A DNA stretch of 64,000 nt from an uncultured delta proteobacterium (GTDB lineage Bacteria > Desulfobacterota > Binatia > UBA9968). The position numbers and the translations under genes are program-made. Below the pieces are notes generated by a model, which was given only the letters and a program-made list of their open reading frames with translations, did not search any database and was not told the DNA's origin. Shown here piece by piece: positions 5,020-48,821 of the stretch (its first letter is position 1; every line of letters begins with the position of its first letter). The stretch is from NCBI GenBank assembly GCA_963816145.1, contig CAWFJP010000031.1:32001-96000 (forward strand), written 5' to 3'.

Positions 5020-7062
5020 ATGGATAACCCAATACAGACGGACTTTATACGCTGGATCGTATTTCTGCCTTTGCTCGGCGCCATTGTTAATGGCTTGCTC
5101 GGCGCCAAGATTCAAAAAAGTTTGGGCAAGGGTGCCATCGGCGTGATTGCTTGCGCGCCGGTGATCGTTGCCTTTGTCTTGTCCGTCAACGCCTTTCTCA
5201 CGCTCAAGGGGCTTGAACCGGAAAAGCGCTTTATCATCGACAACCTCTATCGCTGGATCGATCTCGGCTCGCTCAAGGTCGACATGGCGTTTCTGGTCGA
5301 TCCGTTGTCGTCGGTGATGATCCTGGTCGTCACCGGCATCGGCGGTCTCATCCATATATACGCTACCGGTTACATGCACGATGACAATGGGTTCTGGCGT
5401 TTCTTCGCTTATCTCAATTTATTTACCGCGGCGATGTTGACCTTGGTGTTGGGCGACAGCCTGCTCCTGCTGTTCGTCGGTTGGGAAGGCGTTGGTCTTT
5501 GCTCTTACGCGCTGATCGGTTTTTGGTACCAAGACCATGCTAACGCGCGCGCCGGCAATAAAGCTTTCATCGTTAACCGGGTCGGCGACTTTGGCTTTGT
5601 TCTCGGCATGTTCTTACTGTTCTGGTCCCTCGACGCTCAAGGTCATGGATCATTGACTGTTCGCGAGATGGCCAAATGGGCGCCGTCGATCAAGGATTCG
5701 CTCATTTGGGGTTGGCCAGTCGTTACCGTTGCCACGCTACTCCTTTTCGTCGGCGCTACCGGTAAGTCGGCGCAGATTCCACTGTTCGTCTGGCTCCCCG
5801 ACGCCATGGCCGGGCCGACGCCAGTGAGCGCACTGATCCACGCGGCGACCATGGTCACCGCCGGTGTTTACATGACGGCGCGGATGAACGTGTTCTTTTC
5901 CATGGCACCGGCAACTTTAAATGTCATCGCGATCATTGGTGTCGCCACCGCGTTACTGGCGGCGACCATCGCGCTGACGCAAAATGATATCAAAAAAGTT
6001 CTGGCCTACTCGACCGTCAGTCAGTTGGGCTACATGTTCATCGGTGTCGGCGTCGGCGGCTACGCGGCCGCTGTGTTTCATCTGATGACCCACGCTTTTT
6101 TCAAAGCCTGTCTCTTCCTCGGCGCCGGCAGCGTGATTCACGCCATGCACCATGAGCAGGACATGCGCAAAATGGGCGGCTTGAAGCAGTGGATGCCGAT
6201 CACCTTCGCGACTTTCATCATTTCGGTGCTCGCCATCGCCGGTTTCCCGCCGTTTGCCGGTTTTTTCTCCAAGGACGAAATTCTTTGGCTCGCGTTCACC
6301 AGTGAACATGGCAACAAGTTCGTTTGGTTCTTAGCCCTATGCGGCGCCGGCATGACCGCGTTCTATATGTTCCGCCAACTATTCATGACCTTTTACGGCA
6401 AGTGCCGCGCCGATCATCACACCCAGGAACATCTGCATGAATCGCCATCGCTGATGACCATGCCGCTGGTGGTGTTGGCGATTGGCGCGGTGTTTGCCGG
6501 TCTGATCGGTTTGCCCGGCGTGTTGGGCGGCAGCCAGTTTGCCCATTGGCTGGAACCGGTCATTCATGGTCACGCGGAAGGCCATGCCTCCCATGCCTTG
6601 GAGTGGGGCTTGATGGCAGTTTCAGTTTCGGTGGCATCCTTCGGGGTCTTTATCGCTTTTCTCATGTACCGGCGCGAGTCCTTGTCACCTGATACCTTTG
6701 TCAATCTTGCCGGCGGTCTGCCGTATCGCCTATTCGATCGTAAATGGTATGTCGACGAAATCTATCAAGCGATTTTCGTCAATGGCACGTTGATGCTAGC
6801 GCGTTTCTGGTCGGCATTCGATGCCTATATCGTCGACGGCATCGTCAATGGCGTGGCCGCGGTGACGCGCTTCATATCTTGGCTCGACGGCTTGTTCGAT
6901 GCCTATATCGTCGACGGGTTGGTCAATGCGCTGGCCAATGTGACCTACTGGGCGGGCAACCGCTTCCGCCGACTGCAGACCGGCAATATCAACGGTTATC
7001 TCTACGGCATCATCATCGCGATGGCGGTCGCGGTGTATGTAAAGATCCGATACTGGACCTGA
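5020..7062 (+). CDS. nuoL: NADH-quinone oxidoreductase subunit L (with 26-aa duplication in the transverse helix)
   Basis: GKSAQIPLFVWLPDAMAGPTPVSALIHAATMV and THAFFKA motifs. Confidence 0.97.
   Translation: MDNPIQTDFIRWIVFLPLLGAIVNGLLGAKIQKSLGKGAIGVIACAPVIVAFVLSVNAFLTLKGLEPEKRFIIDNLYRWIDLGSLKVDMAFLVDPLSSVMILVVTGIGGLIHIYATGYMHDDNGFWRFFAYLNLFTAAMLTLVLGDSLLLLFVGWEGVGLCSYALIGFWYQDHANARAGNKAFIVNRVGDFGFVLGMFLLFWSLDAQGHGSLTVREMAKWAPSIKDSLIWGWPVVTVATLLLFVGATGKSAQIPLFVWLPDAMAGPTPVSALIHAATMVTAGVYMTARMNVFFSMAPATLNVIAIIGVATALLAATIALTQNDIKKVLAYSTVSQLGYMFIGVGVGGYAAAVFHLMTHAFFKACLFLGAGSVIHAMHHEQDMRKMGGLKQWMPITFATFIISVLAIAGFPPFAGFFSKDEILWLAFTSEHGNKFVWFLALCGAGMTAFYMFRQLFMTFYGKCRADHHTQEHLHESPSLMTMPLVVLAIGAVFAGLIGLPGVLGGSQFAHWLEPVIHGHAEGHASHALEWGLMAVSVSVASFGVFIAFLMYRRESLSPDTFVNLAGGLPYRLFDRKWYVDEIYQAIFVNGTLMLARFWSAFDAYIVDGIVNGVAAVTRFISWLDGLFDAYIVDGLVNALANVTYWAGNRFRRLQTGNINGYLYGIIIAMAVAVYVKIRYWT
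6817..6917 (+). repeat. 23-bp exact direct repeat at 78-bp (26-codon) period inside nuoL
   Basis: TTCGATGCCTATATCGTCGACGG at 6817 and 6895, encoding FDAYIVDG twice. Confidence 0.92.
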
Positions 7063-7084: not shown

Positions 7085-8602
7085 ATGCAAAATATTCTCA
7101 CCTACATGACGTTTATTCCGCTGGCAGGGGCGGCGGTGGTTTTGGCGTTGCCCAACAACGCCAAGCTGGTCCGCTGGTTTTCCGCCATCGTCACCGTGCC
7201 GCCATTGTTGATGGCGATCTGGCTGTTTAACAATTTCGACCGGACTACGGCTAAATTTCAGTTCGTTGAAGATTACCATTGGATCCCCGCCTACAACATC
7301 AGCTACACCATGGGCGTCGATGGTTTGAGTATTTCCATGGTGCTGCTCACCGCGCTGCTCAGTTTCATCTGCATTTTCGCTTCGTTCGGCATTGAAAAAG
7401 CGGTCAAGGGCTATTTCTCTCTGTTTCTCTTGCTCGACGCCGGCATGATGGGCGTGTTCTGCGCCCTGGATTTTTTCCTGTTTTACGTTTTCTGGGAAGT
7501 CATGCTGTTGCCGATGTATTTTCTCATCGGTATTTGGGGCGGGCCGCGGCGCGAGTATGCCGCCATCAAGTTTTTTCTCTATACCCTGTTCGGCAGCGTC
7601 TTGATGCTCTTGGCGATTCTCGCGCTCTATTTTACCGTCGAACCGCACACCTTCGACATGCGGATTTTGATGTCTCAAGCGAGCAAGTACAGCACTGCGG
7701 TGTTGCCGATGTGGCCGTTTAACGGCTGGGGTTGGAGCTTCCAGCATGCGATCTGGATGGCGCTGTTTATCGGCTTCGCGATCAAGATCCCGGCGTTTCC
7801 GTTTCATACTTGGTTGCCCGATGCGCACGTCGAAGCACCGACGGCGATTTCGGTCATCCTCGCCGGCGTGCTCTTGAAAATGGGCACCTACGGTATTTTG
7901 CGCACCAACTTTCCCATGCTGCCGGTGGCGACCGCCGATTTGGCTTACTGGTTTCTTGGCGCCCTCGGCGCTTGGAATATTATTTACGGCGCGCTCTGCG
8001 CCATGGCGCAGAAAGATCTAAAGAAATTGGTCGCCTACTCCAGCGTCAGCCACATGGGTTACGTCATGCTCGGCATGGCGAGCTTTACCACCCAGGGGTT
8101 GAACGGCGCGGTGTTGCAGATGTTCAATCACGGCACCATCACCGGCATGTTGTTCCTCTTGGTCGGTGTGGTCTACGATCGGGCGCATCATCGTGAGATT
8201 GACGGCTTCGGCGGCTTGGCGGCGATCATGCCGGTCTATACCGGCATCACCGCGCTGGCTTTCTTCGCGTCCATGGGATTACCGGGGCTTTCCGGCTTCA
8301 TTTCGGAAATCTTGGTCCTCCTCGGCACCTGGCAAAAGTATCCGGTGTTGACGATTTGCGGCGCCAGCGGTGTCATTCTCACCGCAGGATATTTGCTCTG
8401 GACGATCCAGCGGGTTTACCTTGGACCGCCCAATGAGAAGTATTTGAAAATGGCCGACATCAATGGCCGGGAGATTTTCACCCTGGTGCCTTTGGGCGTG
8501 ATCGTCATCATTGTCGGAGTTTATCCCAGCGTGGTGCTCGACATGCTGCGCACGACCTTGGACTCGATCAATGCAATCGTTATCCCGCATTTGCACGGCT
8601 AG
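7085..8602 (+). CDS. nuoM: NADH-quinone oxidoreductase subunit M
   Basis: FYVFWEVMLLPMY and PFHTWLPDAHVEAPT motifs. Confidence 0.97.
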   Translation: MQNILTYMTFIPLAGAAVVLALPNNAKLVRWFSAIVTVPPLLMAIWLFNNFDRTTAKFQFVEDYHWIPAYNISYTMGVDGLSISMVLLTALLSFICIFASFGIEKAVKGYFSLFLLLDAGMMGVFCALDFFLFYVFWEVMLLPMYFLIGIWGGPRREYAAIKFFLYTLFGSVLMLLAILALYFTVEPHTFDMRILMSQASKYSTAVLPMWPFNGWGWSFQHAIWMALFIGFAIKIPAFPFHTWLPDAHVEAPTAISVILAGVLLKMGTYGILRTNFPMLPVATADLAYWFLGALGAWNIIYGALCAMAQKDLKKLVAYSSVSHMGYVMLGMASFTTQGLNGAVLQMFNHGTITGMLFLLVGVVYDRAHHREIDGFGGLAAIMPVYTGITALAFFASMGLPGLSGFISEILVLLGTWQKYPVLTICGASGVILTAGYLLWTIQRVYLGPPNEKYLKMADINGREIFTLVPLGVIVIIVGVYPSVVLDMLRTTLDSINAIVIPHLHG

Positions 8603-10285: not shown

Positions 10286-11266
10286 ATGTTAGACAAGGTG
10301 AAACGCAAGGCGATGCTGCGGCAGATGGTTTTGCTGCGGGCATTCGAGGAAAAACTTGAAGAGCTTTATCAGCGAAAAGCGATGTATGGCAGTACGCACT
10401 CTTACCGCGGCCAGGAAGCGATTGCCGTGGGCGTATGTTCGGCGTTGCAGCCGACCGATTTGATCGCCAGCTATCATCGCGGCACCGGCCATTTGATTGC
10501 CAAGGGCGCGGACTTATACACCCTCCTTTGCGAATGCATGGGCCGCGAGGAGGGTTATTCCAAGGGGCGCGGCGGCAAGATGCATATGGGCGATATGGCG
10601 TTCGGTTTTCTCGGCAACACCGGTACCGTCGGAGGCACCGTGCCGACGGCCACCGGCGCAGCATTATCGGCCAAAATCCGCGGCTCGAAAGAAGTCGTCG
10701 CCAGCTTCTTTGGCGACGGCGCAGCCAATCAAGGTGTCGTGCACGAGGCGATGAACCTCGCCGGCGTCTGGAAGCTACCGGTGATTTACGTCTGCGAGAA
10801 TAACCAATACGCCATGACCGTGAGCTTGGAGAAGAGCGTAGCGGTGAAACAATTGTCCGTGCGCGGCGCGGCTTACGGGTTCGAGGGCAAGACCGTCGAC
10901 GGCAACGATGTCGAAGCCGTTTACGAAGCGACAGAGCAAGCTGCGACTAAAGGACGCAGCGGCGGCGGCGCGACGTTTCTCGAATGCCTGACCTATCGTT
11001 GGGACGGTCATTTTGGCGGCGATCCCGGAACCGCCTATCGGACCAAGGAAGAAATCGAATCGTGGAAGCAAAAGTGTCCGATCAAGAGGTTGAAAGAAAA
11101 GTTAATCCAAGAAGGCCATCTTACCGAGGCGGAATTTCAAAAAATGTCCGATGACGTGTACGCCGAGCTGTCGGCCATCGCCAAGCGCGCTGAGGCGGCG
11201 CCGTTGCCGAAGAAAGAAGTCGATCTCGCTTCTATCTATGCGCCAGTTGAGGTGGCCCATGGCTGA
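10286..11266 (+). CDS. TPP-dependent 2-oxoacid/acetoin dehydrogenase E1 alpha subunit
   Basis: GQEA, GRGGKMH and FFGDGAANQG...ENNQY TPP-binding motif. Confidence 0.92.
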   Translation: MLDKVKRKAMLRQMVLLRAFEEKLEELYQRKAMYGSTHSYRGQEAIAVGVCSALQPTDLIASYHRGTGHLIAKGADLYTLLCECMGREEGYSKGRGGKMHMGDMAFGFLGNTGTVGGTVPTATGAALSAKIRGSKEVVASFFGDGAANQGVVHEAMNLAGVWKLPVIYVCENNQYAMTVSLEKSVAVKQLSVRGAAYGFEGKTVDGNDVEAVYEATEQAATKGRSGGGATFLECLTYRWDGHFGGDPGTAYRTKEEIESWKQKCPIKRLKEKLIQEGHLTEAEFQKMSDDVYAELSAIAKRAEAAPLPKKEVDLASIYAPVEVAHG

Positions 11267-12278
11267 TGCAGCGGCGAATCAAAGCGAAAGTAAACAGATG
11301 CGCATGCAGGAAGCGCTGCGCGAAGCGCTCCGTTCTGAGATGGCGCGCGACCCTCGCGTGTTTGTCATGGGCGAGGATGTGGCGTTGTTTGGCGGCGCTT
11401 ACGGTGTGACGCGCGGCTTGATCCAAGAGTTCGGCGACAAGCGCGTGCTCGACACCCCGATCTCCGAATCGGCGTTGGTTGGCCTGGCTGTCGGTGCAGC
11501 GATCAACGGCATGCGTCCAGTGGTGGAAATTCAGTTTGCCGATTTGCTGCCGCTCGCCATGGATCAGTTGGCGTCGCACGCGGCGCGTTATCATTATATG
11601 ACCGGGGGCCGAGTGAGTGTGCCGATGGTGATCCGCACCAAGTTCGCCACCCGTGCCGGCGGCGGACCGAGCCACTCGAGCTGCAACCATGGCGCGTTCA
11701 TTCATTTTCCCGGATTGAAGATCGCCATGCCGACGACGCCAGCCGACGCCAAAGGGATGCTACTATCGGCGATTCGCGATCCCAACCCGGTGCTGTTCTT
11801 CGAGAGTCATCATCTTTATGGCGTACGCGGTCCGGTGCCGGAAGGCGACTATACCGTGCCGATCGGCAAGGCGGTGGTGCGCCGCGCCGGAAAAGACCTG
11901 ACGATCGTCACCTGCGGCGGTATGGTGTTAAAAGCCGACGCTGCTGCCGATGAACTGAAGCAGAAAGGCATCGATGTCGAGATCGTCGATCTGCGCTCGC
12001 TCGCACCGTTGGACAAAGAGACGATTCTTGCCTCCGTTGCGAAAACCAAGCGCGCCATCGTCCTCGACGAAGGACCGATAATCGGCGGCATCTCCGCTGA
12101 GGTCGCGGCGATGATCCAAGAAAACTTATTTTCCGACTTGAAAGGTCCAGTCGTGCGCATCGCCGCGCAGCCGATCCCACCGCCGCACAGCCCGCCGCTG
12201 GTCGACGCGATGATCCCCGATGTCGATCAGGTTGTTGATGCTGTGATGCGCTTGGCTGAGGGCGGCAAGCTCGCCTAA
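11259..12278 (+). CDS. 2-oxoacid/acetoin dehydrogenase E1 beta subunit
   Basis: GEDV, DTPISE, DAKG and VDLRSLAPLD motifs; start overlaps alpha stop. Confidence 0.92.
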   Translation: MADAAANQSESKQMRMQEALREALRSEMARDPRVFVMGEDVALFGGAYGVTRGLIQEFGDKRVLDTPISESALVGLAVGAAINGMRPVVEIQFADLLPLAMDQLASHAARYHYMTGGRVSVPMVIRTKFATRAGGGPSHSSCNHGAFIHFPGLKIAMPTTPADAKGMLLSAIRDPNPVLFFESHHLYGVRGPVPEGDYTVPIGKAVVRRAGKDLTIVTCGGMVLKADAAADELKQKGIDVEIVDLRSLAPLDKETILASVAKTKRAIVLDEGPIIGGISAEVAAMIQENLFSDLKGPVVRIAAQPIPPPHSPPLVDAMIPDVDQVVDAVMRLAEGGKLA

Positions 12279-30752: not shown

Positions 30753-32168
30753 CTAGGACTGTGGCGTGGACTTCAGCTCGGTCATGTATGTGCGCATCTG
30801 GTTTTCAAACAACCGATGCAAGGCGGGTTCAAGCTGGTCTTCCGCCGGGAAGTCGATGCTTAAGGGATTGATATACTGATGGTCTTTATAGAGTTCGAAG
30901 TGGAGATGTGGACCGGTGGATCTGCCGGTGGAACCGACAAAGCCGATGATTTGTCCTTTGGTAACGCTCACGCCAGGCTGGATGCCTTCGGCAAAGCTGT
31001 CCAGATGGGCGTAACGGCTCGAGTAGGTTGAGTCATGTTTGATGTCGACCGCTTTGCCATAGCCGCCATTCCAACCTGCTTCGGCGATGATACCATCGCC
31101 GACGGATCGCACTGGTGTTCCTCTCTGCGCAGCAAAGTCGACGCCGGTATGGGGAAGGTTAGTGCGGAGAATGGGATGAAATCTCGACTCGGTAAAATGC
31201 GACGTGATGGCGCTAAATTCCAACGGGAAGCGGAGAAACGAGCGTGCCAAGCTTCGGCCCTCTTGATTATAATAACCGCCCACGCCTTGTTGCCGCTCAA
31301 AGTAGACCGCGGTGTATTTTTGTCCTGCGCTATTTAGTTCTGCCGCTAGGATGCGCAGTCCAGTTTTAGCTTCTTGGCCCTTGCGGCTGCGTTGCTCGTA
31401 AAGGATCTTGAAGTTATCGCCCTTACGGACCTCCTTTTCGAGATCGATGTCCCAGGTGAACAGATCGGCAAGCTGGGAGAGCAATGCCGGGTGGACGCCG
31501 GCTTTGCGGCCATCGTCGAAAAGTGAATTTTCGATGGATGCGCTAACCGTCTTTAATTCAACATCGAAGGGCTTTTCGCGGCGCTGGACGAAAATGCCGC
31601 GGATGCCTTTTTCCAAGGTTAGAGTGACGGAGTCATTTTGATCGATCTCTACGGCTGTCAGCTGGCCGCGCGTTAGCGACCCACGGCCGCGAATGAGCGA
31701 TTTGCTGAAGAAAAGTTGAGCCTCTTTCCCGGCTGGTAAGGTTTCGCTGCCGATATTGCGTGTCATGGTGCGCGCCCAGAGCAGACTTTCGGCCCTCGAC
31801 ACGTTATTCCGGGTCAAGACATCCGACAGCGTTTCTCCCGGCCGGACGCGGTAGCTCACTAGTTCACGTTTCTCCGAAAAATCGATGGCTGGTGGGCTTG
31901 GCTGCCGCAGTAGGGCGCCATGGGCCTGGCCCTTCGTCAGGCGCCTTACCGGTGCGCTAGCTTGAACGGAAGCCGGGGCTGGAGCCTGCTTACCGCGAAC
32001 AACCTGCTTCGGTCCCGGACGCTGCTTGGCTGCCTCGCTGTTTAGTGGAGCTACTGCGAGTGCGGCAACGATCAGCGAAGAGCCTAAAATTTTCGGTAAA
32101 ATCGAAGTTCCTGGCTGCTCAGGGCGACCATCGCCGAGCTGCCCAGCTGGTGTGATTTGGCAAGCCAT
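30753..32168 (-). CDS. M23 peptidoglycan endopeptidase (MepM-like, LysM)
   Basis: HTGVD, YAHL and STGPHLHFE zinc motifs. Confidence 0.92.
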   Translation of the reverse strand: MACQITPAGQLGDGRPEQPGTSILPKILGSSLIVAALAVAPLNSEAAKQRPGPKQVVRGKQAPAPASVQASAPVRRLTKGQAHGALLRQPSPPAIDFSEKRELVSYRVRPGETLSDVLTRNNVSRAESLLWARTMTRNIGSETLPAGKEAQLFFSKSLIRGRGSLTRGQLTAVEIDQNDSVTLTLEKGIRGIFVQRREKPFDVELKTVSASIENSLFDDGRKAGVHPALLSQLADLFTWDIDLEKEVRKGDNFKILYEQRSRKGQEAKTGLRILAAELNSAGQKYTAVYFERQQGVGGYYNQEGRSLARSFLRFPLEFSAITSHFTESRFHPILRTNLPHTGVDFAAQRGTPVRSVGDGIIAEAGWNGGYGKAVDIKHDSTYSSRYAHLDSFAEGIQPGVSVTKGQIIGFVGSTGRSTGPHLHFELYKDHQYINPLSIDFPAEDQLEPALHRLFENQMRTYMTELKSTPQS

Positions 32169-40963: not shown

Positions 40964-41559
40964 TTAATGTCTTTCAAAACTTCTTTGACGAGCCACTTGT
41001 CGCCGTAATAGTCGACGCGCCGCATGCCCTTGGCGTCGATCAGGGTTGTCAGGTTGGTGTGCTGGATCTGACCGTTGCCGTGGTCTTTGACGTTGACGCC
41101 AAAATTTTTCCAAACTTCGGCGATATCCTTTTGCGCACCGGTGAGGAAATGCCAGTGTTTCACGTCCGCTTTGAACGCCTCGGCGTAGGCTTTCAGCTTG
41201 GCCGGCGTGTCGCGTTTGGGGTCGGTGCTTATGCTGAGTAGTAAGTAATCCTCGCGCATTTCATCTTGGAGGGCGCGCTGAATCGCCGCGAAGTGGGCGC
41301 TGAAGAGCGGGCAGACATCCGGGCAGGTCGTGTAGACGAAAGTGACCAGAACGACTTTGCCGCTCGCCGCTTTGAAGTTAAACTTTTTGCCCGCTTGATC
41401 GGTCAGCGTGAAGCCCGGCGCGGCGACGTTGGTCTCGCGCCGGCCGATCTCGCCTTTCTTGGGCGGGATCGGAATATGCGCGCGCAGCTCAGTGGTCAAT
41501 AGACTCAGCGCAATGAGTACTGCGCCAAGGCCGATGCTACTTTTCGATTTGGAAGTCAT
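40939..41559 (-). CDS. SCO/SenC family protein (#2)
   Basis: FVYTTCPDVCP, STDPKRD and IQHT. Confidence 0.92.
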   Translation of the reverse strand: MTSKSKSSIGLGAVLIALSLLTTELRAHIPIPPKKGEIGRRETNVAAPGFTLTDQAGKKFNFKAASGKVVLVTFVYTTCPDVCPLFSAHFAAIQRALQDEMREDYLLLSISTDPKRDTPAKLKAYAEAFKADVKHWHFLTGAQKDIAEVWKNFGVNVKDHGNGQIQHTNLTTLIDAKGMRRVDYYGDKWLVKEVLKDIKWLESEKS

Positions 41560-42424
41560 AGGTGACTTTTAGCTGCTTGGACTCGTCGGGCAGGTCGCCG
41601 CGAACCAAGTAGGTCGACGAAAACTCTCGGTCTTCGCCCGGTTTCAATTGGACCGGTAGGAGCAATGCGCACTCGACCAGATCGAGATGTTGGCGTAGAT
41701 CTTGGGGTTCGACGCGGTGGACGATGCGGGTTGCGACGGCCTCTTTGGATAAATTGCGGACGCGGTAGGCGATGGTGAACAACTCGTTGGCACGCACGCT
41801 GGTTTCGCGGGTCAGCGGCGTAGCTTCGATAACTTTGTTACTTGGCACGGTGGCATCGTATTGCACTCGTAGGCCGGCGGCCCAGTCGAACAAGACGCGC
41901 CACAGGCCGTTTTCCTTGACCAGTGTGAGTTCTTCTTCGCCTTCGATGAACTTCAATTTGTCAGCGCGGCGCAGATCGTCGAGGGTGGTAAGAATCTCCT
42001 TTTGCTTCTGCGGCGGCAAAGCGTTGAGTTTGTCGGGGTCCCACTCGAGCAAGAGTGTCGACAAGTTATTGGCGTCGGGCAGCTTGACTTGGAATTTAAC
42101 CTTGGTTGCGGCGTTGTTTTCCACCGTGCCGACCTGACGCACCTCGATCATCTCGGCGAGTTTGGCGGCGACGGTCAAGGTGAAGCCGCTAAATGGCCCC
42201 TTTTCCTGGATATAGAGTTCCTCCGACTTGATCAGCCGGTCGCGGTTGGAGATCAGGCGATAAGCTTTCTTATGATCGTGGGCGTAGGCGCTCTTGAGAT
42301 AGGCGTTGATCGTCCGCACCGGCCCAGACTCGGCGCCGTTGCTGGATGCAGAGAGAAAGTAACAGGGCGGCAGCGCCAGCGCGATGGCGGCGGCCGCGGA
42401 CCAAAGTAGATTGGCGATGTTCAT
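41537..42424 (-). CDS. Exported two-domain protein, C-terminal CtaG/Cox11-like domain (paralog A)
   Basis: HRVEP...LVECALLLPVQLKPGEDREF...LKVTYDF resembles Cox11 but has a single Cys. Confidence 0.6.
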   Translation of the reverse strand: MNIANLLWSAAAAIALALPPCYFLSASSNGAESGPVRTINAYLKSAYAHDHKKAYRLISNRDRLIKSEELYIQEKGPFSGFTLTVAAKLAEMIEVRQVGTVENNAATKVKFQVKLPDANNLSTLLLEWDPDKLNALPPQKQKEILTTLDDLRRADKLKFIEGEEELTLVKENGLWRVLFDWAAGLRVQYDATVPSNKVIEATPLTRETSVRANELFTIAYRVRNLSKEAVATRIVHRVEPQDLRQHLDLVECALLLPVQLKPGEDREFSSTYLVRGDLPDESKQLKVTYDFQIEK

Positions 42425-43338
42425 GGTTTAACCGATTCCAGCGGCGACGAGGTAACTGCGTAAGTGACGCTTAACTGGCGCACCGTTTCGGGCAGGGTGC
42501 CGCGTAACAAGTAGGTTGTGACAAACTCTTCTTCTTTCCCCGGTTGCAAGCGTACCGGCAAGATGAAACCGCAGTCGACCAGATCGAGATAGTCGCGCAG
42601 CTCTTGCGGTTCGACCAAGTGGCCGATGCGCGTCGATAGGGTTTGTTTGCCGGTGTTTTTGATTTTCATGCCGACGCGAAAGACTTGCCCGGGACGCGAC
42701 GCGACTTGGGCTTGTTCGATCTTGATTTCCACAGGTGATGACGTCGGGATCGCCGGCTGGAAGGTCAACTTGACGCCGGCTGCCCAGTTTAAAAATACTT
42801 TCCAACCGCCGGCTTCTCTGACCAGGTTGAATGTCTCCTCGCCAGCCACCAAGGCGATGGTCTTGTCGCGTCGTTGCCGGTCGATGGAGTTGAGCAGCGT
42901 CTTGCGCTCGGTAGTGGATAGCGATTCCAGTCGTTCGCTGTCCCAATCGAGCATCAATGGGTTCAGTTTCGTCGCATCCGGCACGTTGGCTTTTACTTTC
43001 ACCACGGCGTGCTCCTGATCGATGACCAGTTCCAGAAGGCTAACGCTAACGCTCTGCGCCACGGCTCGCGCCGCTTCGAGGATAAAATCGCGAAACTCGC
43101 CGCGAGCGCGGCTGTAACTATGCACATCCCTTAGACGTTGGTCGGCGCTGGAAATTTGCTCGTAAGCGGTGCGAAAATCGCGGGCGTAAAGCGCCTTCAC
43201 ATATTTACCCAGGGCCGTAGATATTTCTTCGCGGTCATCAGCCCTGGCCGGTTGTGCCAAGAGCGCGACGAGAGCAATAACGGCGGCATATAACGGCAGA
43301 GACAGAGATCGGCGCGCCGAGAGGGGTTGTAATTCCAT
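42421..43338 (-). CDS. Exported two-domain protein, C-terminal CtaG/Cox11-like domain (paralog B)
   Basis: HLVEP...LVDCGFILPVRLQPGKEEEF...LSVTY; shared WAAG linker. Confidence 0.6.
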   Translation of the reverse strand: MELQPLSARRSLSLPLYAAVIALVALLAQPARADDREEISTALGKYVKALYARDFRTAYEQISSADQRLRDVHSYSRARGEFRDFILEAARAVAQSVSVSLLELVIDQEHAVVKVKANVPDATKLNPLMLDWDSERLESLSTTERKTLLNSIDRQRRDKTIALVAGEETFNLVREAGGWKVFLNWAAGVKLTFQPAIPTSSPVEIKIEQAQVASRPGQVFRVGMKIKNTGKQTLSTRIGHLVEPQELRDYLDLVDCGFILPVRLQPGKEEEFVTTYLLRGTLPETVRQLSVTYAVTSSPLESVKP

Positions 43339-43382
43339 CGAACTTCCAGGGGAGCCGCAGTTTAAGCCATCATGCCGGTGTG

Positions 43383-43970
43383 TCAGCGACCCTGAGCCGG
43401 GATCGTCCAGAGATACAGGGTGCGGCCTTCGACGCGCTCGATGCGGTCGGGTTTCCAGTCGCCCATGTCGAAGGCGTGGGAAACCACGCGGGAGCCGGGT
43501 TTGAGCTGACTTAGAATATTCGGTTTTAACTTTAAATTCACATCCGGCAGTAAATACATGGTGACTACCGATGCCGCAGAAAGATCGACCGTGAGAATGT
43601 CTTGCTGGCGAATTTCGGCCTGCTCCTGAACGCCGGCCTTGCGAATGTTGTCGCGCGACTGTTTCACCAGATCGCCGTCGATTTCAAAGCCCACGGCTTT
43701 GGCGCCTTTTTTCGCAGCGGTGATGACGATGCGGCCGTCGCCGGAGCCGAGATCGTAGACGACATCGCCCTTCTTGACGCCGGCGAGTTCGACCATCTTG
43801 TCGACGACCTCCTGTGGCGTCGGTACGAACGGCACGATCTTTTTGTTTTCAAAGATGCTGTCTTGGGCGAACGCAGCGCGGTCGAGCGGGTTAGGTGCAA
43901 TGACGGCAAAAGTCGATAGGACGCTCAATCCTAAGCTAGTAATTACTTTCGCGACAATTCGTTGCTTCAT
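43383..43970 (-). CDS. Class I SAM-dependent methyltransferase with signal peptide
   Basis: VPFVPTP, VYDLGSGDGR and VVTMYLLP; AAGGAGG RBS; N-terminal hydrophobic segment ending AFA-Q. Confidence 0.88.
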   Translation of the reverse strand: MKQRIVAKVITSLGLSVLSTFAVIAPNPLDRAAFAQDSIFENKKIVPFVPTPQEVVDKMVELAGVKKGDVVYDLGSGDGRIVITAAKKGAKAVGFEIDGDLVKQSRDNIRKAGVQEQAEIRQQDILTVDLSAASVVTMYLLPDVNLKLKPNILSQLKPGSRVVSHAFDMGDWKPDRIERVEGRTLYLWTIPAQGR

Positions 43971-44051
43971 GGAATGACCGGCCTCCTTAGGTACTCGTTG
44001 CAAGGCAATTAACCATAAAATTTCTACCGTAGCCAGATGGACCTAATGGGG

Positions 44052-44933
44052 TTATTTGACTTTGAATTCATAGGTTAATTTAATCTCGCGATGGCTTAGG
44101 CCCGCCGCGCTGTTGAGCTGGTAAGCCATGGCAAATTCCTTTTCTTGCTTCGCATCGAGCGTCGTCGGCGTCAGCAAGCCGCACTCGACGAGCTGCAGGT
44201 CCTCGGCTACTTCCGGCGGTTCAAACAAATGGCCGACGGTGAATATCACGGCGTGCGCGCCGGGATTTCTAATCTTAAGATTGACCAGAAACAGCTCATC
44301 GTTTTTGGCTATCACTTCGGTTGTGGTGAAGCGGATATCTAGCTTGTTTCCGTCGGCGAGTTTGCTCTGCAGAAGCACGCGCGTGCCGGCGGCCCAATCG
44401 AGAAAAACCTTCCATGCATCGGCTTCTTTGATGAGCTCGATCGTCTCTTGTCCCTCGATGTTGAGCAGCTTGCCGCTCTGATTGCGGCTGTCGAGTTCGG
44501 CCAAAAGTTCTTTTTGTTTCTCCGTCGGAAGGGCATTCAATCGATCCTCGTCCCAATGTAACAACAAATCATTCAGTTCGGCCGGCGCGGGGACGCGGTA
44601 ACCGACCTTAATAACGAGACTGTCACCGCTTTCTTGCCGGTCGATCAGCCAAACTTTCATGAAGCCGGCGAGTTTTCTCGAAACTTCAAGGGTGAAGCCG
44701 GTGTAAGCGCCCTGGCTATTCACAAAGTTCTGACGCGTTCGCTCCTGCCGGTCGGCAGATGAAAGATGGTCGTACGCCTGAGCGAAGTCGCGTGCGAAAG
44801 TCGCCCGCAGATAGCCGTCTACGGTCGCGAGCGGGCGATTCGATTCGCGACTCCTTGGTGGAATCAGTAGATAAACGCCAAGCGCCGATAAGACCGTCAG
44901 CAAGGCTGCGAGGATAAGTTTGCCACGATACAT
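44052..44933 (-). CDS. Membrane-anchored two-domain protein, C-terminal CtaG/Cox11-like domain (paralog C)
   Basis: HLFEP...LVECGLLTPTTL...IKLTYEF; shared WKVFLDWAAG. Confidence 0.6.
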   Translation of the reverse strand: MYRGKLILAALLTVLSALGVYLLIPPRSRESNRPLATVDGYLRATFARDFAQAYDHLSSADRQERTRQNFVNSQGAYTGFTLEVSRKLAGFMKVWLIDRQESGDSLVIKVGYRVPAPAELNDLLLHWDEDRLNALPTEKQKELLAELDSRNQSGKLLNIEGQETIELIKEADAWKVFLDWAAGTRVLLQSKLADGNKLDIRFTTTEVIAKNDELFLVNLKIRNPGAHAVIFTVGHLFEPPEVAEDLQLVECGLLTPTTLDAKQEKEFAMAYQLNSAAGLSHREIKLTYEFKVK

Positions 44934-44994
44934 AAGATGTTGATCGACGCCGCGAATCGCCAACGGGTGCGCCGCATTGTTGATCAAACCGCAT

Positions 44995-45564
44995 TCAACG
45001 CTGAATGCCAACCTTCTTGATCGCTTCTTTGACGCGTTCCGGCGAAATCGGTCCTAGGACGACGTCCCGGATAATGCCTTGTCCATCGACGAAAAAAGTC
45101 GCCGGTGGACCGAAGATGCGGTAAGACCGCTTCACGGTGCTGTTCAGATCGAGCGCGATCGGGAACACCAGCTTGGCCTCCTTCGCGTATTCAATGACTG
45201 CGGCGCGGGTGTCCTCGACGGCGATGCCAAGCACCTGATAACTGCCGCCGGCCTTTGCCGCGAAATCGTTGATCAGCGGCATCTCTTCGCGGCAGGGATC
45301 GCACCAGCTGGCGAAGAAATTAATTAACAGCGGCTTGCCGCGAAATGTCTCGAGTCCGACAGATTTGCCTTCCAAGGTTTTCAAGTCGAAGGGAATGGCA
45401 TTGCCGCCGATGGCGGGCGCCGTGTTTTGCGGTGCCGGGTGCACATGTTGCGCCCAGGTAGGATTGGCCATCAAAGCCATGCCGATTGCGCAGCTGGCAA
45501 AAAGCCGTGCCGGCCCGGTCCACCGCGGGTTCCTTGAGGTACTTTTTTGCGTGGGCATAATCAT
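44995..45564 (-). CDS. TlpA/ResA-type thiol-disulfide oxidoreductase
   Basis: NFFASWCDPCREEMP; signal peptide followed by QHVH. Confidence 0.9.
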   Translation of the reverse strand: MIMPTQKSTSRNPRWTGPARLFASCAIGMALMANPTWAQHVHPAPQNTAPAIGGNAIPFDLKTLEGKSVGLETFRGKPLLINFFASWCDPCREEMPLINDFAAKAGGSYQVLGIAVEDTRAAVIEYAKEAKLVFPIALDLNSTVKRSYRIFGPPATFFVDGQGIIRDVVLGPISPERVKEAIKKVGIQR

Positions 45565-46886
45565 TGTCGCACCGCCGCGCTTCTGAGCACGACACGCGAG
45601 TCTTCATCGTCGGTTTCAGTCCAGGCGACATGAATTAGATTTTTCTTGAGCGCCAACACGGGTCGGCTGGCGTTCCCTTTGGCACTGCTGAGCTGTTGAA
45701 TCGGACTCCAGGTTCGGCCATCGGCGGCGAGAACCCTCAGGTAGATTTGGGCTCGATTGTTGGCGTCGAGGTTGCTCCAGGCGAAGTAGACCTGATCGTC
45801 GTCGCCGACGATCAGGTTATTATAGAGTGTTTCCGGCGCCGTGTTGGCGTGGATCATTGTCCTCGGCGCGAATGTCTTGCCGCCGTCCTTCGAAACGCTG
45901 TAGTAAATCCCCGCCTCTTGTTCCCTCCGGCCTTGGGTGAACCAGCTGACGTGCAGTTGGCCGCGACTGTCGCGGCCAATGCTTGGGCCGGAGTGGGGAC
46001 AGGAGGGGACTTGCCAGCCGTCGTTGCTGATTTCTATCGGGGCGCCGAAGCTGGCGCCGCCGTCGGTCGATTTGCGCAACACATGGTTGCGAATTTTGTT
46101 AGCATCGACTTCGCGGTCGACCATATAAACGGTTTTGCCGCCATCGGCGAAGTCGATGCCCAGCTTGCAACATTCGCACAGACCGTCGCCGACTTGATAA
46201 TTCTTTGTCAGTGCCTGACCGCGAGAATCGATCTTCATCAAATACAACTGGCGTGGCTTGGGATTATCGATCCGGCGGTCGATCCAGGCGACAAGCAAGT
46301 TGCCATCTGGCATGGTTTCAATGATCGGAAAACGGCCGGCGTCTTGAACTTCGTTCAACGTGCGTGGCGGCGTGAAGCCGCCGTTGCCGTCTTCAATTGC
46401 AAAGCGAATATTGGCTCGGGTCTTGTCGCCTTTCGCACCGGGGATGGACCAGACGGCAAAGATTCTTCCACTGCGGTCGAAGGCTAGTTTCGGCCCATTT
46501 TCTTCGCCTTGGACGGCTTCGACGCTACCGTTGACCCTTATCGCCGCGGTCCAAGTCTTCCCGCCGTCGCTGGATGACGCGATTAATGCATTGCGCATCG
46601 GCGATGGTGCGCGATCGCCGCCCATCGCTCCGTGGCCAGAGTGTGGTTTTCCGCCTGGCCAAGGCGTGTCGTGGTCTTCGGTCCAGACGGCAAACAATCT
46701 CCCGTCGAGGCTATAGCGCAAAAATGGCGTCGAAGGATTTGCTTCAGACCTGCCAATCGCGACCTCAGGCCCAAACCTGAGCTGCACCGATTGTGTTGTC
46801 ACCGGCGGTTGTGCGGGTTGAGCGCCGCAACCAATACAGACGATGAGAAAACTGAACAATGACCATCTACCGACAGCCCTTTTCAT
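45561..46886 (-). CDS. BNR/Asp-box beta-propeller lipoprotein
   Basis: Lipobox IGC; Asp-boxes SSDGGKTW, STDGGASF and SKDGGKTF; CECC and CPHSGP motifs. Confidence 0.85.
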   Translation of the reverse strand: MKRAVGRWSLFSFLIVCIGCGAQPAQPPVTTQSVQLRFGPEVAIGRSEANPSTPFLRYSLDGRLFAVWTEDHDTPWPGGKPHSGHGAMGGDRAPSPMRNALIASSSDGGKTWTAAIRVNGSVEAVQGEENGPKLAFDRSGRIFAVWSIPGAKGDKTRANIRFAIEDGNGGFTPPRTLNEVQDAGRFPIIETMPDGNLLVAWIDRRIDNPKPRQLYLMKIDSRGQALTKNYQVGDGLCECCKLGIDFADGGKTVYMVDREVDANKIRNHVLRKSTDGGASFGAPIEISNDGWQVPSCPHSGPSIGRDSRGQLHVSWFTQGRREQEAGIYYSVSKDGGKTFAPRTMIHANTAPETLYNNLIVGDDDQVYFAWSNLDANNRAQIYLRVLAADGRTWSPIQQLSSAKGNASRPVLALKKNLIHVAWTETDDEDSRVVLRSAAVRQ

Positions 46887-46925
46887 GCGGGACTCCTGCC
46901 CAATTTAATGAATGAGTACAATAAT

Positions 46926-46968
46926 TCAGGGCGTTTACCACAAATGCATTTGTCGTAAACGAGCCTGA
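46926..46968 (-). promoter_or_regulatory. Long imperfect stem-loop between the RAPP leader gene and the BNR operon
   Basis: Minus strand TCAGG-CT-CGTTTAC-G-ACAAA-TGCA-TTTGT-G-GTAAACG-C-CCTGA. Confidence 0.65.
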
Positions 46969-47003
46969 CGAGTTGGCGAAAATAATTCGGAGTGACGAGA
47001 ACT

Positions 47004-47399
47004 TTAAATTAGTGGTGGTGCGCGTTGAGAAAAAGGCGAGGGGTTGAACGACGAGGCTTCGGTTATTGCTTGGTCAACTTGGTGTGTGACAGCATGTTCG
47101 ACGGCGACGAAGGCAAATGTCTGCACGAGTGAGGCGTGGGCATTTTGCGCAACCGAAAGGACAAAGCAATCGGCCGGCTTTGATGTTGGGCGCTTGTGAT
47201 GGTCGCTGTGACTGTGCTCGGTAGTATCGGTATGATCATGAGTTTGTTCGGCAGCGACAGACTGCTCAGCTGCGGGAAATTGCTCGAAAAAGTGGTGCAC
47301 CCGATGCGGTGCCGACGCCGCCAGAAAAAATCCGAAAGCGGCGACTATGCTCAAATACAAGCCGCGTACGCTTGCGGAAACTGGTTTTGGGGCGTTCAT
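47004..47399 (-). CDS. His-rich DUF2946/CruR-like leader protein with C-terminal RAPP arrest motif
   Basis: N-terminal TM, 12 His, one Cys, ends PSPFSQRAPPLI*. Confidence 0.75.
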   Translation of the reverse strand: MNAPKPVSASVRGLYLSIVAAFGFFLAASAPHRVHHFFEQFPAAEQSVAAEQTHDHTDTTEHSHSDHHKRPTSKPADCFVLSVAQNAHASLVQTFAFVAVEHAVTHQVDQAITEASSFNPSPFSQRAPPLI

Positions 47400-47459
47400 G
47401 GTCTGTGTGACTAATAGTAATCCGACCGCGGTGGCAACTCAAGCCATTCTTGGGTCCGA

Positions 47460-47870
47460 TTATTTGACTGTGAACTCCACCGTGTCGCGGGCAGCCAATT
47501 CGGTTTGGTGATCGCTGGCGACCACCCGCAGTTCCAAAATGTGTTTTCCTGGTTTGATGCCGTTCAGTGTGCCTTTGGCGCTTTCGAACATGCCCATCAA
47601 CTCGCCATCAACGTAGGCGTGGGCGTGATGGCCGCGTTTGCCTTTGGTGAGCTTGAACTCGACCGGGACTTTGTCGCCCTTGACGACCTCGCCTTTGGTG
47701 GGTGCGAGGATCTTGATGCTCGCGCCCTCGGCGGGCTGAAGCGGTGCGGCGGATGATTTCACCGGCGCGCTTTTGACTGCCGGTTGCTCTTGGCCATGTT
47801 GATGCTGGGCCTGGGCCATGACCGGTAAGGGGGTCAAAAATAGAATCAATATACCGTTCCGTATCACCAT
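47460..47870 (-). CDS. Small exported His-rich putative metal-binding protein
   Basis: Signal peptide, QHQHG, GHHAHAYVDG, PGKHILEL and SDH. Confidence 0.7.
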   Translation of the reverse strand: MVIRNGILILFLTPLPVMAQAQHQHGQEQPAVKSAPVKSSAAPLQPAEGASIKILAPTKGEVVKGDKVPVEFKLTKGKRGHHAHAYVDGELMGMFESAKGTLNGIKPGKHILELRVVASDHQTELAARDTVEFTVK

Positions 47871-48001
47871 TCGATTATTCTCCCTTGATGCAATTTCACC
47901 ATATTGGGCCCATTGACGAAAGCCGCGCGTGTATTTCATTTCTCTTAGACGTGTTAAAGAGCGTAGCGCTTTTGGCTCCCTTCAAGAAATTCTGCCGTTT
48001 G

Positions 48002-48821
48002 TCAGCGCCGTAAGCGGAACCGATAAACGAATGTAAACTCGGCTGGAACATTCTGTCCGTCTGCTTGCGCCGGTTCGAAGCGCGATTGCTTGACCGCTTT
48101 GAGCGCTTCTTCATCAAAACCGCCGCCGCCGCTTTTGACAATTTCCGCCTTGGTCACTTTGCCTTCCGGGTCGACTTCAATTCTCAATGTTACATCGCTT
48201 TCGAGTCCGGCGCGCAGCGCCATCGCCGGATAGGTGGCGCGCACGGTTTGAATCGGCTTGGCTTCGCGGTTGGTTCGCAACACGGTCTGCGCGGGTAACC
48301 CAGGGCGTACCGGAGCCGCGGCCCAAACCCGAAGCCGCCGTGCCGCCGCCACCGCCGGCGGTGCCAGTACCCGGAACAACCCCGACCTCGCCTTTGCCAA
48401 AGAGGTTTCCGGCACCGGCTTCACTGCCGCCGCCTTCGGTTCTTGCTGTGGACGGAGTTGGCGAACTTTCCGTTCGCGCAACCGGGGTCGATTTTGCCTC
48501 AGCAGCTTTCATGCTTTCATCTTTCGGTAAAGCAGCGGGTGCTGGAACCGGCTTTTCAATTTTGACGATTTCGGGTTTGGCGGCAGCTTTGGTTTCTTTG
48601 ATTTTCTCCGGCTTAGCGGGCAGCGGTTTTTTTACTTCGGGGTCCGGCTCGACCTTTTTCACCGACACCGGTGGAGCCGAAGGCGGTAAATCGACCAGTC
48701 CGATGGGCTGAAATTCCTGGCGGCGAAGACCGTTTTGAACTAACGCGGAAGCGAGCGCCAACACCAGCAGGTGAACGACCAGTGACGAGGCAAATGGCAA
48801 CTTGAGCGAATCATCTCTCAT
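48002..48821 (-). pseudogene. tonB: Energy transducer TonB, split by a +1 frameshift near 48303
   Basis: N-terminal TM with SLVVH and Pro/Lys linker in one frame; TonB C-domain (YPAMA...GFDEEALKAVKQSRFEPA) in another; junction ACG CCC TGG GTT. Confidence 0.8.

Follow-up and report, generated by a model that had tools for sequence, protein, structure and literature searches.

The 64,000-nucleotide (nt) stretch of DNA analysed here, hereafter the window, covers positions 32,001 to 96,000 of contig CAWFJP010000031.1 (assembly GCA_963816145.1) from an uncultured delta proteobacterium of the GTDB lineage Desulfobacterota; Binatia; UBA9968. On its minus strand it carries an island of genes that begins with those for NikR, a TonB-dependent receptor, an MFS protein, ExbB, ExbD, TonB and a protein here called p159. 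These are followed by a 131-residue open reading frame (ORF; 47004..47399), here called the leader, and then by genes for a BNR protein, a TlpA/ResA-like thioredoxin, a Cox11-like protein, a methyltransferase and two further Cox11-like proteins; the distal end encodes Sco, DUF4382, a second Sco, a VKOR-thioredoxin and a rhodanese. The same order recurs in related metagenome-assembled genomes (MAGs), and both the 587-kb contig and the island share the composition of the remaining genome, that is, they are compositionally native. The leader is a candidate arrest leader of the kind exemplified by CruR of Bordetella pertussis, which is its likely mechanism class. It probably acts, by CruR logic, as a metal-sensing ribosome-arrest leader that gates the downstream BNR, TlpA-like, Cox11-like and Sco genes.

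In the ORF list the leader comprises a signal anchor, a PHRVHH motif, a His-rich linker, one Cys (C78), a RAPP tetrapeptide, two further residues and a stop codon; all coordinates given for it and its surroundings refer to the minus strand. A basic N terminus, with K5 and R12, precedes a hydrophobic signal-anchor helix (residues 9-28; 47316..47375), which AlphaFold2 models with a block predicted local distance difference test (pLDDT) of 85-92 and whose maximum 17-residue Kyte-Doolittle mean is 2.01; the membrane segment or export signal typical of DUF2946/CruR proteins is thus predicted for the leader as well. The helix is followed by ASA-PHRVHHFFE, in which the Pro at +1 after ASA should block signal peptidase. 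The PHRVHH motif (residues 31-36; 47292..47309) is predicted to lie at the periplasmic face of the membrane. Beyond H32, H35 and H36, further His residues (H54, H56, H62, H64, H67 and H68) lie in a variable linker (47196..47240) that is predicted to be disordered, residues 45-69 having a pLDDT below 50. C78 (47166..47168), the sole Cys of the leader, stands in the context CFVL within DC78FVLSVAQNAH, near the start of a long helix modelled with low confidence at residues 75-117, and the AlphaFold2 prediction for the whole leader is poor (pLDDT 61.9). The RAPP codons CGC GCA CCA CCA (residues 126-129; 47013..47024), the predicted arrest site, are followed by CTA ATT and then TAA; the translation closes with FNPSPFSQRAPPLI and a stop, and the C terminus before the stop codon reads SSFNPSPFSQRAPPLI. 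An initial annotation of this DNA had described an ORF with a transmembrane or signal segment, a His cluster, a single Cys, a RAPP and a set of spacer features, and all of these are present. Its account needs correcting in the strand, which is minus, and in calling the RAPP terminal, because two codons separate it from the stop; it had also placed the Cys 47 residues before it, which is correct for the residues in between, although R126 lies 48 positions on from C78. Its view of CFVL as a degenerate CxxC in a peptide dominated by His is borne out across the family, which is without CxxC and has invariant His residues.

Judged by its sequences, the leader family is real and large. A single-sequence search (E<=0.01) identified 165 homologous proteins, none with a precomputed Pfam domain; a profile search (E<=1) identified at least 668 clusters, which among the matches listed come mostly from soil and sediment metagenomes; and a search through every protein of a 50%-clustered library identified 99 representatives (E<=1e-3). 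Unbiased motif figures are those from the library representatives. HRVHH is found in 94 of the 99 and RAPP in 85; the 14 without RAPP include two motif variants (RSPP and RAPS), one sequence cut inside the motif and 11 that break off or lose similarity ahead of the C terminus. The conserved Cys precedes the RAPP Arg by 48 (75 sequences) or 49 (nine sequences) positions in 84 of the 85 RAPP-bearing representatives, and this distance stays fixed while that from HRVHH to RAPP spans 63 to 172. Just two residues follow RAPP in 71 of the 85, and the number of His residues in the linker ranges from 0 to 21 (median 6). A second Cys occurs nine residues downstream of the conserved one in 16 of 84 representatives. 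In an alignment of 48 sequences (A1), residues P31, H32, R33, V34, H35, H36, C78, R126, A127, P128 and P129 are invariant, PHRVHH being present in 48/48. Over 94 distinct ORFs the RAPP motif is written with all six Arg, all four Ala and all four Pro codons, and HRVHH likewise with all synonymous codons; therefore, selection acts on the peptide. Conservation of RAPP and of the His and Cys residues in orthologs, which had been set beforehand as a check, is thus evident.

The source genome has one copy of the leader family. Among 401 genomes of the same phylum the family was found only in the source genome; because only 10 candidates per genome were scored, false negatives are possible, and the survey is not used as evidence of absence (in a control, five of five known carriers were recovered once all candidates were scored). 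Most named carriers are Binatia-like MAGs of a size similar to that of the source genome.

RAPP is rare in the proteins of the source genome. ORFs of at least 200 residues contain 11 instances against 49.1 expected (ratio 0.22), and in the same set the ratio is 0.10 for RGPP and 0.86 for AAPP. RAPP and RGPP reportedly rank with the tetrapeptides that bacterial proteomes avoid most, and they are concentrated towards the C-terminal ends of small exported proteins, downstream of which lie genes for TonB receptors, YcnI, PCuAC, PepSY and thioredoxin/DsbA; in CruR arrested in vitro, the two Pro codons occupy the P and A sites (PMC12992588). From the conservation of the motif and its genome-wide avoidance, we infer that ribosomes would arrest at the leader RAPP.

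Alternatively, the leader peptide could be a stable membrane-anchored metallochaperone, or a redox partner of TlpA, Sco or VKOR, whose RAPP has no regulatory role. The conserved PHRVHH and DC..AQNAH resemble a metal site, a long helix is predicted at residues 75-117, and thiol-disulfide proteins are encoded later in the operon. However, a tetrapeptide that is strongly avoided elsewhere (PMC12992588; see the ratio above) is fixed here with two codons left before the stop, the Cys-RAPP ruler holds constant as the other parts of the peptide vary in length, the structure model is of low confidence, and the operon, its genes otherwise closely spaced, retains a spacer of 91-237 nt. A chaperone or redox role is thus unlikely.

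Kinship with known arrest leaders is also apparent from the DUF2946 profile (Pfam PF11162, gathering cut-off 23.7 bits). Twenty-two of the 48 family members match DUF2946 at E<=1 (best 0.0014); these sub-cut-off matches run end to end, over profile positions 4-117 of 117, with 10.9-18.2 bits. Six of the 30 nearest ESM-Atlas clusters are DUF2946 clusters (score 0.96). By these comparisons the leader family is an unmodelled sister family of DUF2946 and a divergent cousin of CruR and CutF. It is filed as a CruR-like sister family rather than as a member because all is shared except the CxxC and the Pfam score.

The CruR protein of B. pertussis (Bp2923) is likewise a small exported protein of poorly structured prediction, with RAPP two to three residues before its C terminus: its Cys motif is at 90-93 and its RAPP at 139-142, three residues before the end (PMC9426467). 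In both proteins the Cys motif lies 46-49 residues before RAPP (48 in the leader; C90/C93 to R139 in Bp2923), a spacing that is conserved and functionally required in Bp2923, and a long spacer follows before the regulated genes (PMC9426467). DUF2946 neighbourhoods are copper-linked and include genes for TonB receptors, Sco, PCuAC, YcnI, CopC and AhpC_TSA, and the surroundings of the leader family (TonB receptor, Sco, CopC and AhpC_TSA) match these published operons (PMC9426467). The leader family differs from CruR in having a single Cys together with the invariant PHRVHH, in lacking CxxC and in scoring below the Pfam cut-off; its immediate target would be a BNR-propeller lipoprotein rather than a receptor, it lies mid-island with NikR at the head, and it occurs mainly in Binatia-like soil MAGs rather than in Proteobacteria. 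Sequence comparison thus upholds the CruR-like exported leader that had been proposed, with its conserved RAPP, fixed Cys-to-RAPP spacing and long structured spacer before the BNR gene.

That spacer measures 117 nt (46887..47003) and stands out because most island genes overlap or lie less than 65 nt apart. The leader directly precedes the BNR gene in 71 loci, in 70 of which the spacer is 91-237 nt long (median 135); in one, a p159 gene intervenes. The first 35 nt of the spacer are 66% pyrimidine and 17% G, and 54 of 62 loci have a pyrimidine-rich tract after the stop. A C-rich, G-poor tract of 83 nt, reaching from 45 nt ahead of the stop codon to 35 nt past it (46969..47051), contains 36% C and 10.8% G in the window (means over 62 unique loci, 36.9% and 17.5%); C/G exceeds 1.5 in this tract in 60 of the 62 unique loci versus one of 62 in the BNR coding sequence. 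By composition, the tract looks like a Rho loading site and is a candidate for one, and the source genome encodes Rho (711 bits). The stalling and termination first suggested for this leader would fit a Rho-site-like tract in a genome with Rho.

RNAalifold on the spacer alignment A2 identified a small hairpin, CGAA-UUAUU-UUCG (46977..46989; columns 27-39), with 87.5% of cells paired. Downstream of it lies a 43-nt stem-loop (46926..46968), which is marked by both fold energy (-19.8 kcal/mol, z -5.13; none of 200 dinucleotide shuffles folds as well) and covariation. In the eight spacers of the window's clade, 91% of its cells are paired versus 35-50% in slid controls, and eight of its 17 pairs are altered on both sides, G-U pairs included, in what is a small sample of eight sequences, four of them from one subclade. 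Only this hairpin is significant; the fold of the whole 161-nt region is not (z -0.57). RNAalifold found no structure in 13 mixed spacers, and a cleaner set of 10 gave one. The ribosome-binding site of the BNR gene, AGGAG (46893..46897), lies within a GGGCAGGAG conserved in alignment A2, 6 nt from the BNR ATG. Thus, the pyrimidine-rich stretch, the stem-loop and the ribosome-binding site attributed to the spacer at the outset are all in place. The 43-nt hairpin may be a pause signal or a stabiliser. A DNA operator (CGTTTAC-N16-GTAAACG) was considered and rejected: the arms differ among close relatives although NikR itself is 75-93% conserved, and the G-U pairs break the palindrome and keep the RNA helix.

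Together, these features suggest how the leader would work. It would be a signal-anchored, largely unstructured nascent-chain sensor that is exported co-translationally, and ribosomes would stall at RAPP, the P site occupied by Pro128 and the A site by Pro129. During the stall, C78 would lie 48-50 residues from the peptidyl-transferase centre, newly emerged towards the periplasm, and the H32/H35/H36 triad would already have reached the surface of the membrane. If these three His residues and the Cys bound a transition metal, the pulling force on the chain would change, and with it the duration of the arrest. The stalled ribosome would be centred on the 83-nt C-rich/G-poor tract and adjoin the structured 117-nt spacer, a placement like that proposed for CruR. 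Its presence or absence would set expression of the BNR, TlpA-like, Cox11-like and Sco genes, either through access of Rho or through masking of the start region. The favoured direction, following CruR logic, is that metal-replete conditions would relieve the arrest and turn the downstream genes off. The Rho-type reading is slightly better supported here than start-site masking.

Several observations count against such a CruR-like mechanism. The window leader has no match to PF11162 even at E<=10, no leader-family member reaches the 23.7-bit cut-off (nor is there any match above it in the source genome), and the CxxC that defines DUF2946 is lacking, with 0 of 48 sequences of alignment A1 having one and 0 of 84 representatives having one at the conserved Cys. 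Motif counts taken from the 114 family loci are circular because the peptide patterns by which these loci were retrieved contained PHRVHH and QRAP. Conserved Ser, Pro, Phe and Gln codons supply part of the C-richness of the 83-nt tract. The 43-nt hairpin has no explained function because it starts 35 nt past the stop, too far away for a ribosome arrested at RAPP to open it. A minus-strand scan listed no canonical intrinsic terminator in the spacer; U-rich runs follow hairpins in some clades only, in a hairpin survey that had no shuffle control. The remaining points of this kind concern pairing between the post-stop tract and the BNR start.

Such pairing is central to a second version of the arrest leader, which would follow CutF/SecM logic: the arrested ribosome would open a long-range helix that masks the BNR start, so that a metal-induced or prolonged arrest switches the genes on and Rho has no primary part. 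CutF of Rhodobacter capsulatus, a DUF2946 protein, offers the precedent for this model as a co-translationally exported sensor with a C-terminal proline stall motif and an RNA structure adjoining the downstream start site (preprint 10.1101/2025.02.05.636593). It differs from the leader, which has RAPP, in its CxxxC, its PPP motif, its dependence on EF-P and its role in switching on a detoxifying oxidase (10.1101/2025.02.05.636593). In three other clades (B, D and E), RNAalifold predicts that the Shine-Dalgarno region pairs with the final codons plus the tract behind the stop, this closing helix having about 90% of cells paired versus 18-77% in slid controls, and the prevalence of pyrimidine-rich post-stop tracts noted above would also suit it. 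However, native pairing hardly exceeds that between loci or in shuffles: the mean z against mononucleotide shuffles is -0.18, with two of 62 loci below -2, and native pairs average -15.1 kcal/mol against -14.1 for cross-locus pairs (native stronger in 36 of 62; Wilcoxon p 0.056, the loci not being independent). On these shuffle and cross-locus controls the pairing was dropped as a general co-evolving helix and kept only as part of this rival. In the window, where start-site masking is weakly supported, the helix is weak (-9.1 kcal/mol) and ends short of AGGAG, and induction by metal is less natural for an island of uptake type. CutF/SecM logic is therefore the less probable version, and gating by CruR logic is preferred.

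The arrest peptides ApdA, ApdP and SecM resemble the leader as small proteins, encoded upstream of the regulated gene, that have a localisation signal at the N terminus and RAPP or RAGP near the C terminus, but they monitor Sec/YidC activity and precede sec or yidC genes (PMC10951233, PMC7897499). The leader has conserved His and Cys residues and precedes genes for metal and thiol handling (BNR, TlpA-like, Cox11-like, methyltransferase and Sco), none of which encodes a Sec or YidC component. The leader could nevertheless monitor periplasmic thiol-redox state or export capacity instead of metal, with a mixed disulfide at C78 pulling the nascent chain. A single invariant Cys and the downstream TlpA/ResA-like and VKOR-thioredoxin genes are in keeping with this idea, as are the RAPP upstream ORFs (uORFs) reported before DsbA and thioredoxin genes (PMC12992588). 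It is nonetheless very improbable: it gives no role to the invariant His triad and the His-rich linker, and the gene directly downstream is BNR, not a thioredoxin gene.

If the leader binds a metal, as the CruR-like reading has it, copper would have about an even chance of being the ligand; nickel is the next candidate, clearly less probable, and any other metal comes after it. The initial annotation had favoured nickel or cobalt. The gene at the head of the island does encode a NikR, complete with its four Ni-site ligands, but the nickel assignment is conjectural, and the neighbours and the kinship of the leader are copper-linked. In the nickel version, which is possible though tentative, the leader would be a periplasmic Ni (or Co) sensor that adds a post-transcriptional tier to cytoplasmic control of the island by NikR. 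Scoring 175 bits (cut-off 105) for NF003381, the NikR is a full equivalog, and it retains H-x-H-x5-C and the upstream His when aligned to solved NikRs; its homologs, at 75-93% identity, head 10 related loci whose flanks extend that far. The invariant set of three His and one Cys in the leader equals what we take to be the high-affinity Ni site of NikR, the CxxC, the Cu(I) motif, has been lost in all members, and DUF4198, which is encoded beside paralogous leaders, is presumably related to the Ni/Co components NikK and CbiK. Against nickel stand the DUF2946 kinship and the Sco, Cox11-like, TlpA-like and CopC/CopD neighbours, both Sco proteins of the island keeping CxxxC and a His; Cu(II) and Zn(II) are also bound by His3Cys sites, and the island is without a nickel enzyme or a nickel permease. 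Among sequences of solved structures, the TonB receptor had matches only to BtuB, Cir and FepA, in their plug domains, which gave no clue to the metal.

The word 'nickel' does not occur in the arrest-peptide literature searched; the main text of PMC12992588 mentions no nickel, zinc, BNR or sialidase, and its supplementary tables may contain the leader family. There is some chance, though a rather low one, that the leader family is the first nascent-chain sensor for a non-copper metal, periplasmic Ni (or Co), with a NikR-like His3Cys site spread across the translocon and an arrest-based, extracytoplasmic second tier of control for a NikR-headed uptake island. To our knowledge, CruR and CutF are the only metal-sensing nascent exported peptides that have been studied, and both use Cys pairs and respond to copper. 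The leader family keeps the arrest motif and the ruler of about 48 residues and replaces the ligand set by a His triad and one Cys. It can thereby serve as a natural test of two points: what determines the metal specificity of nascent-chain sensors, and whether the ruler is a physical constant of the path through ribosome and translocon. It also draws attention to an unstudied, widely conserved island that combines NikR, a TonB receptor, a BNR propeller, TlpA, Cox11-like proteins and Sco.

The nikR ORF extends over 53339-54025, but its start is probably at 53755, the longest ORF being about 90 residues longer. GTGTTAC and GTAACAC motifs, which we take to resemble a published NikR box, are found upstream of nikR and of the receptor gene (flanks 53281-53345 and 53756-53960).

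The leader had been described as lying mid-island and not at the head of an operon. This is true of its position, 60 nt after p159, but a promoter-like element, TTGAGT-17 nt-TACTAT (47414..47442; read by hand), stands 15 nt upstream of its ATG. Eleven of 12 aligned relatives keep the pattern TTG...TAC.AT and, around it, GGTCCGATTAC (alignment A5). Because of this conserved element directly upstream, the leader may head a unit of its own, as CruR does. The element is missing from the output of a consensus promoter scan, which gave two different weak sites at 47488-47446 and nothing promoter-like within the leader-BNR spacer. Logan contigs from four RNA libraries of four studies cover 47079-47391, 47303-47589, 47479-47636 and 45860-46037, although contigs cannot show transcription, transcript ends or levels. 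They flank the 60-nt gap between p159 and the leader on both sides, from which transcripts cannot be read, and none lies over the spacer or the last 75 nt of the leader ORF. The spacers upstream of the leader (approximately 47440-47456) and of the MFS gene (approximately 51290-51310) have in common AGAATGGCT[T/C]GA, with 13 of 14 nt shared, and the sequence after it is also similar in the two; the shared element may be a common promoter or operator.

The BNR gene (45561..46886) encodes a 441-residue, lipoprotein-like protein of the BNR/sialidase fold (Pfam BNR_2 and BNR_4) with CECC and SCPH motifs. Its Atlas cluster is mostly Binatota, and no match was found among sequences of solved structures.

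Relatives often have a second leader, with two Cys residues, ahead of DUF4198-CopC-CopD, and in one related locus a third leader precedes a TonB receptor, which is the classical CruR position. In loci L013 (leaders at 5046-5414, 7983-8396 and 10945-11550) and L005 (5043-5441 and 8001-8396), a C-x8-C leader stands before DUF4198-CopC-CopD and a single-Cys leader before BNR; the third and longer leader of L013 is the one before a TonB-dependent receptor. The source genome has the BNR-type leader only, and no CopD above cut-off.

Arrest motifs before metal-related genes are also known from uORFs such as SLIV_16130 and SLIV_18480 of Streptomyces lividans, which resemble the leader as small exported or membrane proteins with a C-terminal RxPP (RAPP or RGPP) and conserved Cys and His residues, precede metal-related or thioredoxin genes and have been proposed as metal sensors, but belong to other families and phyla (PMC12992588). 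Elsewhere in the source genome (L119; G000:C4:72500-88000) lie three paralogous small ORFs with RGPP (1585-1881, 2419-2715 and 10781-11179). Each has a hydrophobic N terminus, FFLPxHxH, a C(S/T)C motif and RGPP two to six residues before the stop, with a CxC-to-RGPP spacing of 45/47 residues in all three. They precede genes for MerC-like, DUF3299, ZrgA and MacB-type ABC proteins and a ZnuA/ZnuC pair, and are possible arrest leaders of a zinc-type island. No homology between them and the leader family was detected, hhalign giving a probability of 3%, and when one of them was used in a word-based search it retrieved no other sequence. If the nickel-sensor reading of the leader were true, these RGPP leaders by ZnuA and ZrgA genes would imply that arrest leaders with a ruler of 45-48 residues are a general, metal-tunable sensor design.

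Three further features of the island concern neighbouring genes. The p159 gene before the leader (47460-47939) encodes a 159-residue Ig-like protein with an HHAHAYVDG motif and a weak BiPBP_C match; its homologue in related islands is a C-terminal domain attached to CopD, as in L033:8722-9936 (CopD plus BiPBP_C). The three Cox11-like proteins (41537-45011) are 295-319 residues long and have an extra N-terminal domain and one Cys each (VDCGF, VECGL and VECAL) where Cox11 presumably carries CFCF; because of this single Cys, they are probably not ordinary Cox11 copper chaperones. The TonB gene (48002-48821, minus strand) consists of two overlapping frames (48177-48821 and 48002-48481) that shift near 48301-48309 against the TonB of a relative. 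In a 97.5%-identical metagenome contig (L035) TonB is intact as one 272-residue ORF (L035:327-1145), and the split thus reflects either a frameshift in the source genome or an assembly error.

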